From: a virus
Taxonomy: Duplodnaviria; Heunggongvirae; Uroviricota; Caudoviricetes
IMG/VR virus record: IMGVR_UViG_2718218453_000005
DNA: 48,452 nt
Direction: 5' to 3' (one strand)
Below are positions 40,062 to 40,736 of this stretch, one piece after another (positions within the stretch are counted from its first letter, which is position 1; the number at the start of each line of letters is the position of its first letter). Under the pieces are notes generated by a model. It saw only the letters and a program-made list of their open reading frames with translations, was not told where the DNA came from and did no database searches. Position numbers and translations under genes: made by a program.

Positions 40062-40736
40062 ATGAAAAACACTATCAGCGAACGTATTCGGAATCGTCGA
40101 AAAGACGTTGGATTAACCCAACAGCAGGTTGCGAAAGCAATCGGCATATCTCGTGTATCCGTAACAAAATGGGAAAATGGCTCTTCAAAACCTGACGGTG
40201 AGAATTTGCATCTACTGTCAAAATTGCTTTCCAAATCTCCTGAATGGATTCTTTATGGAAAGGACGGTCACGATAAAACCGATGATCTGCGTCTGAATCA
40301 GTATCTTTACATTAGTGACAACATCGCCCGGTTGCCCGTTTTAACGTGGGAACAGGCTGGTTATTGGGATATGAGTTGTCCAGTAACCGAGATTCCTGGC
40401 ATTAAGAATTGGGTTGATGTCATGACAAAAACCGCTGAAAACTCTTTTTTATTGCATGTTGAGGGAGATGCGATGACAAACTCTAACGGCCTCCCAACCA
40501 TCCCCGATGGATCTACCGTGCTGATCACACCATGCTCAAGTAACATTAGAGAACTGGTGGGAAAAATAATCTTAATCCAATTGGAAGGAACGCCAAACGT
40601 AACACTAAAAAAAGTTGCGATTGACGGACCAAACATCTATCTGTTGTCACTGAATCCGCTTTACAAACCCATCGAACTGAATGGTGGTTACACCATTAAA
40701 GGTAAAGTTTCACAAATACATCAATACTTAGACTGA
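40062..40736 (+). CDS. CI-like prophage repressor (HTH_XRE N-terminal, S24 LexA-like C-terminal domain)
   Basis: start placed at ATG after both operator palindromes (ORF-track start 39963 is TTG and overlaps ydaS); HTH LTQQQVAKAIGISRVSVTKWENG; S24 motif reads VEGDAMT (Ala at Ser position); conserved Lys in TLKKV. Confidence 0.75.
   Translation: MKNTISERIRNRRKDVGLTQQQVAKAIGISRVSVTKWENGSSKPDGENLHLLSKLLSKSPEWILYGKDGHDKTDDLRLNQYLYISDNIARLPVLTWEQAGYWDMSCPVTEIPGIKNWVDVMTKTAENSFLLHVEGDAMTNSNGLPTIPDGSTVLITPCSSNIRELVGKIILIQLEGTPNVTLKKVAIDGPNIYLLSLNPLYKPIELNGGYTIKGKVSQIHQYLD

Follow-up and report, generated by a model that had tools for sequence, protein, structure and literature searches.

The DNA stretch analysed here (48,452 nucleotides; IMG/VR virus record IMGVR_UViG_2718218453_000005, Caudoviricetes), hereafter called the window, corresponds to a Rac-like lambdoid prophage whose CI-type immunity repressor (positions 40062–40736, plus strand) carries an alanine, Ala137, in the position of the nucleophilic serine of its Peptidase_S24-fold domain. 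The Ala137 protein is quite probably a natural Ind- CI-type repressor of an intact prophage, which would be derepressed in trans, independently of the SOS response or only rarely. Prophages with this alanine are probably not inducible by the classic SOS route.

The repressor gene encodes 224 residues and was identified from the list of open reading frames, Pfam, matches to lambda CI and P22 C2, and RefSeq. An N-terminal HTH_3 DNA-binding domain (residues 9–63; 40086–40250, plus strand; Pfam E = 2e-16) is followed by a Peptidase_S24-fold C-terminal domain (residues 92–216; 40335–40709, plus strand; Pfam E = 9.4e-17). The PF00717 match covers profile positions 1–115 of 116 and scores 61.2 bits against a gathering cutoff of 23.3. 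Among solved structures, the best phmmer match is full-length lambda CI (3bdn; E = 9.8e-14, residues 11–217), followed by the N-terminal domain of P22 C2, which matches the repressor HTH (E = 2.6e-12), and then by C-terminal fragments of lambda CI (2ho0 and 8gmu). The recognition region of the HTH, SRVSVTKWENG, is invariant among the aligned relatives. On its sequence, the open reading frame is an HTH–Peptidase_S24 repressor genuinely homologous to lambda CI and P22 C2.

The catalytic columns were assigned with phmmer and with a MAFFT alignment of the repressor, lambda CI, LexA, UmuD, P22 C2 and 78 database homologues. Ala137 (codon GCG, 40470–40472, plus strand) occupies the column of the nucleophilic serine (S149 in lambda CI and S119 in LexA), and Lys183 (codon AAA, 40608–40610, plus strand) retains the general-base lysine (K192 in lambda CI and K156 in LexA). 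In the phmmer alignment with lambda CI, 'lhvegdamtnsng' lies opposite 'levegnsmtaptg' and 'tlkkv' lies opposite 'tfkkl', so that the repressor reads GDAM at the G-x-S-M motif. Residues Q-A99-G100 match Q-A111-G112 of lambda CI as well as the Ala-Gly pairs of P22 and LexA, and Ala99-Gly100 (40356–40361, plus strand) thereby lies at the scissile Ala111-Gly112 of lambda CI. A first-pass annotation made by eye had placed the alanine of VEGDAMT (GCG at about 40470–40472) in the nucleophile column and had recognised the conserved lysine in TLKKV. Both assignments were borne out by the hidden Markov model and multiple alignments, and the conserved Ala-Gly cleavage site is a point added here.

The change at the active site appears to be confined to one residue. 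No serine, threonine or cysteine has been gained near the active-site motif in comparison with Ser-bearing sister alleles, and a different serine as the nucleophile was rejected for this reason. The Ala-Gly pair and the lysine are kept in all sampled members of all three clusters of Ala-type repressors described below. The alignments indicate that the repressor has lost the nucleophile alone and that its other catalytic apparatus is intact. Slilaty and Little are said to have reported in 1987 that the Ser-to-Ala substitution abolishes self-cleavage in LexA S119A, and active-site mutants of lambda CI reportedly behave likewise. Because replacement of the nucleophile has this effect in LexA and the active site of lambda CI is alike, the Ala137 repressor should not self-cleave, and there is strong reason to expect this both with and without RecA*.

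The alanine is widespread in E. coli. Among 5,426 complete E. coli genomes, the 801-bp repressor region is matched in 702. Of the 683 complete genomes that match a 61-mer centred on the GCG codon, 681 contain it exactly, and its TCG version is exactly matched in none of the complete E. coli genomes; the alanine is therefore neither an error nor a private mutation. One of the two imperfect matches, from the ST131 strain 5506, differs at His146Arg and leaves the Ala codon unchanged. Approximately 13% of complete E. coli genomes, ST131 and O111:H8 strains among them, contain the Ala cassette, and the repressor reading frame is intact and annotated as a coding sequence in every genome looked at.

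Ala- and Ser-type homologues were grouped into clusters at 90% identity, and the uniformity of each cluster was judged from sampled members. Alanine is encoded by GCG in cl1 (E. coli and E. albertii) and cl2 (E. coli) and by GCA in cl4 (Salmonella), and serine is encoded by TCA in cl3 (E. coli) and by TCG in cl5 (Enterobacter). Every sampled member of cl1, cl2 and cl4 has alanine, and every sampled member of cl3 and cl5 has serine. A Ser-type sister allele is approximately 88% identical overall and 85–89% identical over the C-terminal part. In the 5,426 complete genomes, 8 records have 90–95% identity to the cl3 gene and represent the Ser-type allele of this immunity group; the one that was checked reads GDSM with TCA. 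The Ala type thus outnumbers the Ser type by approximately 683 to 8, or about 85 to 1.

Serine is taken to be the ancestral state because all more distant homologues in the MAFFT alignment carry G-[DE]-S-M. A bootstrapped neighbour-joining tree has the topology ((((cl1 Ala, cl2 Ala)90, cl3 Ser)100, cl4 Ala)96, cl5 Ser)100, and a clade of all Ala sequences was recovered in 0 of 200 bootstrap replicates. Because this tree interleaves Ala and Ser clusters, the catalytic codon is concluded to have changed at least twice, the codons pointing to at least two first-position T/G transversions. By codon parsimony every scenario requires four steps, so that two losses are not separated from one loss and a reversion.

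The C-terminal domain is under strong purifying selection. Between cl1 and cl2, both of which have alanine, the synonymous divergence (dS) of this domain is 0.66, the nonsynonymous divergence (dN) is 0.036 and dN/dS is 0.054. Comparisons between Ala and Ser sequences yield dN/dS values of 0.056–0.076, about the same as for the Ala–Ala pair. A dN/dS of 0.054 at a dS of 0.66 argues that the domain is still functional and is no decaying pseudogene, and it is presumably kept for oligomerisation. The alanine is read as an old, maintained state that arose or reverted on more than one occasion within a single immunity group.

Catalytically incomplete S24 domains also occur among more distant proteins. 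In a library clustered at 50% identity, 80 of 102 full-length HTH-S24 relatives contain both the serine and the lysine, and approximately 20% deviate; several of the deviating relatives read GDAM and lack the Ala-Gly site. By this survey, the Ala137 repressor is a variant of a class of incomplete S24 domains that is not rare. Three distant relatives lack Ala-Gly: the motif is GDAM in P0205 and P0226 and NDAM in P0156. Two Arsenophonus proteins show further combinations: in P0027 neither the G-x-S-M motif nor the Ala-Gly site is left, and P0010 keeps GDSM with Ala-Gly absent. Full-text literature searches found no paper describing the Ser-to-Ala substitution of the Ala137 repressor.

The repressor belongs to a complete prophage. 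Positions 19960–48452 of the window are 100% identical to E. coli strain D3, and by the D3 annotation the window is one whole Rac-like lambdoid prophage of approximately 48 kb that adjoins ttcA. The left-operon side contains intR, xisR, ralR, recT, recE, kilR, sieB and ydaF, and the other side contains full sets of replication, nin/Q, lysis, terminase, head and tail genes. A tail-fibre-assembly remnant is the sole pseudogene among the prophage modules. The immunity position is occupied by HTH-S24 CI-type and P22_Cro-family genes instead of the RacR/YdaS pair of K-12, and the YdaT-family gene is shared with K-12.

The immunity cassette is found in other prophages as well. Near-identical Ala cassettes (6–8 differences in 717 nucleotides) reside in different backbones, at ttcA in strain D3, at ompW in two ST131-type strains and isolate L1_E925, at yccA/tusE in O111:H8 and E2855, where the integrase is frameshifted, and at potC in CUVET16-394. 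The integrases, replication genes and Q genes differ between the copies at different attachment sites. Because near-identical copies are embedded in backbones that differ in these genes, the cassette is read as a circulating immunity module and not as one vertically inherited relic. Among other E. coli genomes (L006 and L013–L019), most backbones have ydfA/B/C-dicB-ydfD (Qin-like) genes in the left operon after the Ala-type cI and not the Rac kilR-recET set. The O111:H8 and E2855 copies are decaying, as seen from the frameshifted integrase and, in E2855, also from an IS1203 insertion.

The genes and sites around cI form a recognisable immunity switch. A cro-like gene of the P22_Cro family (71 residues; 39755–39970, minus strand; Pfam E = 6.5e-16), labelled as a transcriptional regulator by PHROG and as 'Cro/CI family' by RefSeq, diverges from cI. 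It is followed by a YdaT-family or CII-like gene (141 residues; 39333–39758, minus strand) that matches Pfam YdaT_toxin and PHROG_163, 'CII-like transcriptional activator' (E = 1.9e-45). Three perfect palindromes of the pattern GTAAC-N4-GTTAC are located at GTAACAATAGTTAC between cro and cI (40000–40013), at GTAACATTGGTTAC abutting ATG 40062 (40048–40061) and at GTAACTCTTGTTAC on the 3′ side of the cI terminator (40811–40824). These are the only perfect copies in the 48 kb, and three one-mismatch copies lie elsewhere; the six sites compare with an expectation of 0.91 per shuffle, and no shuffle out of 100 gave as many. A terminator-like hairpin with a U-run directly follows the cI stop codon (40740–40764, plus strand; RNA fold −16.8 kcal/mol, z = −4.9).

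The palindromes are conserved in position among related loci. The GTAACAATAGTTAC site is present at the same place in L002, L006, L008 and L011, the GTAACATTGGTTAC site in L002 (with one spacer change), L006 and L011, and sites equivalent to GTAACTCTTGTTAC in L002, L006 and L011. All three sites are therefore found in L002, L006 and L011, and only the first in the Salmonella locus L008. The pattern recurs at matching positions in most of the relatives fetched, Ser or Ala alike. From their placement, the palindromes at 40000 and 40048 are inferred to be candidate operators on the right (OR) side and the palindrome at 40811 a candidate operator on the left (OL) side. GTAACTCTTGTTAC lies on the OL/PL side (PL, left promoter), ahead of ydaG-like, ydaF, kilR, recET, xis and int. 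In a by-eye reading of the right promoter (PR), GTAACAATAGTTAC lies between a TTGACA (40026–40021, minus strand) and the cro start. An inverted repeat, CTCCTG-N10-CAGGAG (39977–39998), lies in the interval from the cro start to the first operator, where it overlaps the ribosome-binding site of cro; its right arm varies in other strains (CAGAAG or TAGAAG).

The start of cI can be placed at either of two codons. An alternative in-frame ATG at 40020 gives the 238-residue PGAP/RefSeq model WP_001394126.1, which RefSeq labels 'LexA family protein'. The 14-codon extension of this model (40020–40061) is poorly conserved except for 'NIGY', which is the translated operator GTAACATTGGTTAC, and ATG 40020 overlaps the opposite-strand TTGACA, a candidate −35 element of the cro promoter. 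Because a well-spaced Shine-Dalgarno sequence is missing at both ATG 40020 and ATG 40062, cI might be translated from a leaderless message, as it is in lambda.

A link between the prophage and the SOS response was sought outside the repressor. The window contains no LexA box of the form CTGT-N8-ACAG and no site with three or fewer mismatches to the 20-bp LexA consensus, and its best CTG-N10-CAG site agrees with the consensus at 12 of 20 positions. The only CTG-N10-CAG site in the switch region (39978–39997) was rejected as a LexA box, as it agrees at 10 of 20 positions and overlaps the cro ribosome-binding site. The RefSeq annotation of D3, whose prophage is identical, lists no antirepressor of the Ant, Rha, KilA-N or Bro type, no antirepressor-type gene is annotated in approximately 9–10 kb around the cassette in six other genomes, and no antirepressor family was detected by PHROG, Pfam and PADLOC scans of the unassigned reading frames of the window. 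The LexA-controlled antirepressor that the first-pass annotation had proposed to look for was thus found in the prophage neither by box searches nor by annotation or scans of reading frames.

These features suggest how the switch would operate. The N-terminal HTH would bind the GTAAC-N4-GTTAC operators on both sides of cI. The linker would keep its Ala-Gly scissile site, and the S24-fold C-terminal domain, devoid of its nucleophile, would be kept because it still gives dimerisation and cooperative operator binding, as extrapolated from lambda CI. Since the repressor should not self-cleave, the prophage would not be directly SOS-inducible, that is, it would not be wired to the SOS response via its own repressor. 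Given no self-cleavage and no LexA-controlled antirepressor of its own, derepression would have to come from outside or independently of SOS. It might proceed via a trans-acting antirepressor of a co-resident element or via another protease, or repression in the CI/Cro/YdaT switch might rarely be lost by chance. The trans-antirepressor route is modelled on Gifsy (PMC3121763) and the SOS-independent flip on PaaR2 (PMC8630535). The first-pass annotation had offered a non-SOS induction route or a non-inducible prophage; both options are kept, and the list is extended by a trans antirepressor from another prophage.

Behaviour that fits induction in trans has been described for KingRac, a 46.8-kb Rac-like phage that resides at ttcA and transfers in the mouse gut; its induction by mitomycin C is weak alone and strong in a double lysogen with phage Nef (PMC6731689). 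KingRac is not usable as direct experimental evidence on the Ala allele.

Several points weigh against a non-cleavable repressor that is relieved only in trans or rarely. The predicted loss of cleavage is extrapolated from mutants of LexA and lambda CI. The Ala-Gly pair and the lysine are invariant after a dS of approximately 0.66, which could mean a retained role, with the whole domain being equally conserved. The prophage appears complete and the cassette occupies four or more attachment sites in different backbones, so that phages or recombinants must still move and an efficient induction route may exist. A consensus promoter scan of 39700–42400 returned nothing useful and showed no promoter in the intergenic region, and the operator and promoter assignments are a reading of the sequence. 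In indirect support of poor inducibility by the usual methods, no match to the repressor above 60% amino acid identity exists in 50,697 deposited phage genomes; the absence of so common a cassette may also reflect sampling.

An alternative with a modest share of the probability is that the prophage has been domesticated. Here the Ser-to-Ala change would be a 'grounding' mutation that benefits the host, and an uninducible prophage would be retained with its cargo (trkG, recET, sieB and a Tmn-like gene) and decay slowly, with no alternative induction. The predominance of the Ala allele in complete E. coli genomes (approximately 683 against 8 Ser in the same immunity group) agrees with such retention, as do the decay of some carriers (frameshifted integrase, insertion sequence and pseudogenes in the O111:H8 and E2855 copies) and the fact that isolated phages include no close match. 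K-12 Rac offers a case of a defective prophage that has been retained (PMC4632033). However, all modules of the prophage studied here are intact apart from the tail-fibre-assembly remnant, and near-identical cassettes at four attachment sites in different backbones point to continuing exchange. The alanine also persists over a dS of approximately 0.66 and into Salmonella, which is beyond the usual intact lifetime of a dead prophage.

Somewhat less plausible is that TCN and GCN codons, which specify serine and alanine and differ by a single transversion, alternate within one immunity group (with operators and cro/ydaT partners unchanged) and thereby serve adaptively to turn direct SOS inducibility on and off. 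The Ala form, on this view the successful one in E. coli, would then remain mobile by 'eavesdropping', through a trans antirepressor or through trans-cleavage at Ala-Gly by a co-resident SOS-responsive element. Such a toggle would explain the intact Ala-Gly and lysine pair and would fit the behaviour of KingRac (PMC6731689).

SOS-dependent proteolysis of the Ala137 repressor itself is very unlikely. It would require cleavage at Ala-Gly in trans by a Ser-bearing S24 partner (CI-type, LexA or UmuD-like) or the use of another nucleophile. Kim and Little are said to have described in 1993 that LexA, fragments of lambda CI and UmuD undergo intermolecular cleavage. All three Ala clusters strictly conserve the scissile Ala-Gly and the lysine, and the Ser-type sister, approximately 88% identical, has operators of the same pattern at matching positions. 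However, the whole domain evolves at a dN/dS of 0.05, so that conservation of Ala-Gly and lysine is nothing special, and trans cleavage depends on specific contacts between C-terminal domains and proceeds poorly when the repressors are full-length. Occurring in 8 of 5,426 genomes, the Ser-type allele is too rare to be the usual partner, and another nucleophile is disfavoured because the surroundings of the active site show no serine, threonine or cysteine that the Ser alleles lack. That the alanine stems from faulty sequencing or assembly, or from a pseudogene allele confined to the source genome, has negligible probability. Nothing spoke for it, and it was ruled out because 681 independent complete genomes share the identical codon and flanking sequence, the reading frame is intact and annotated in all genomes looked at, and purifying selection is strong.

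Other genes of the prophage include cargo. A 1210-residue reading frame in the nin region (33696–37328, minus strand) has no PHROG match. In PADLOC its N-terminal 440 residues alone fit the Tmn defence model (E = 1e-66), and in Pfam it hits the YobI-like P-loop NTPase (E = 8e-123); it is probably an anti-phage defence gene. The trkG potassium transporter (26188–27645, minus strand), as in K-12 Rac, a Hok/Gef toxin gene (32923–33048, minus strand) and a DUF1971 gene (32499–32840, plus strand) are also carried as cargo. Just upstream of the terminase, 24334–26050 (minus strand) encodes a ParB/Srx-like protein, which also has PADLOC type II methyltransferase and PHROG methyltransferase matches, and a 317-residue protein assigned to the PHROG 'beta-glucosyl-HMC-alpha-glucosyltransferase'; the pair may be a DNA-modification module. 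In D3 (locus L012, 20644–24093), the sitABCD iron/manganese transporter operon lies just past the tail-fibre end, next to what is position 1 of the window, beside the truncated tail-fibre-assembly pseudogene and may be cargo or a remnant of an older element.

The DNA-damage response of a prophage decides whether it is released by antibiotics, colibactin or inflammation, together with its cargo and transduced genes. The label 'LexA family protein' suggests an SOS-inducible element, and the sequence indicates instead a broken self-cleavage route. Predictions of induction based on S24 domain matches would be wrong for the Ala group and for the approximately 20% of related representatives that lack the serine or the lysine. 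Ser and Ala alleles in one immunity group constitute a natural experiment on the cost and benefit of SOS inducibility. The interest of the Ala137 repressor lies in its prevalence in E. coli, the misleading annotation, the repeated change of the catalytic codon and the possibility of a one-nucleotide experiment.

The Ala137 repressor shares with lambda CI, P22 C2 and LexA the two-domain build, the S24 fold, the linker Ala-Gly and the general-base lysine. It differs from them in the alanine that replaces the nucleophilic serine, for which the self-cleavage chemistry is predicted to be absent. The switch resembles that of lambda in the divergent cro, the flanking palindromic operators and the terminator after cI, but the gene that follows cro belongs to the YdaT family and does not encode a lambda-type CII protein.

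The prophage shares with K-12 Rac the neighbourhood of ttcA, intR, xisR, ralR, recET, kilR, sieB and ydaF and the arrangement of cro-like and YdaT genes. PaaR2, from the PaaR2/YdaS/YdaT system of CP-933P, is a CI-like repressor without a peptidase motif and is unresponsive to mitomycin C (PMC8630535). An equivalence of PaaR2 and the Ala137 repressor was rejected because PaaR2 has no peptidase motif at all, and, in contrast to CP-933P, no paaA2-parE2 toxin-antitoxin genes follow the repressor here. The repressors of 186 and N15, RacR and PaaR2 have no S24 domain, whereas the S24 domain of the Ala137 repressor is complete and only its nucleophile is changed.

Gifsy prophages have non-cleavable repressors that are induced by antirepressors able to act in trans between prophages (PMC3121763, in which the non-cleavable lexA3 allele is also cited). 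As in Gifsy-1/2/3, 186 and N15, which use LexA-controlled antirepressors, the repressor here is predicted not to be cleaved and another factor would have to induce. The Gifsy repressors are 136 residues long and have no C-terminal domain, whereas the Ala137 repressor keeps a full S24 domain. Gifsy prophages also carry a LexA box and an antirepressor gene, neither of which was recognised in the prophage studied here.

LexA S119A, lexA3 Ind- and lambda cI ind- carry the same kind of lesion as the Ala137 repressor, and S119A is the identical substitution at the same position. Such non-cleavable alleles are expected to give a stable repressor and a prophage that is not SOS-inducible. Unlike these laboratory alleles, the alanine described here is natural, is fixed in approximately 683 complete E. 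coli genomes, in E. albertii and in a Salmonella lineage, and has been maintained under purifying selection over a dS of approximately 0.66.

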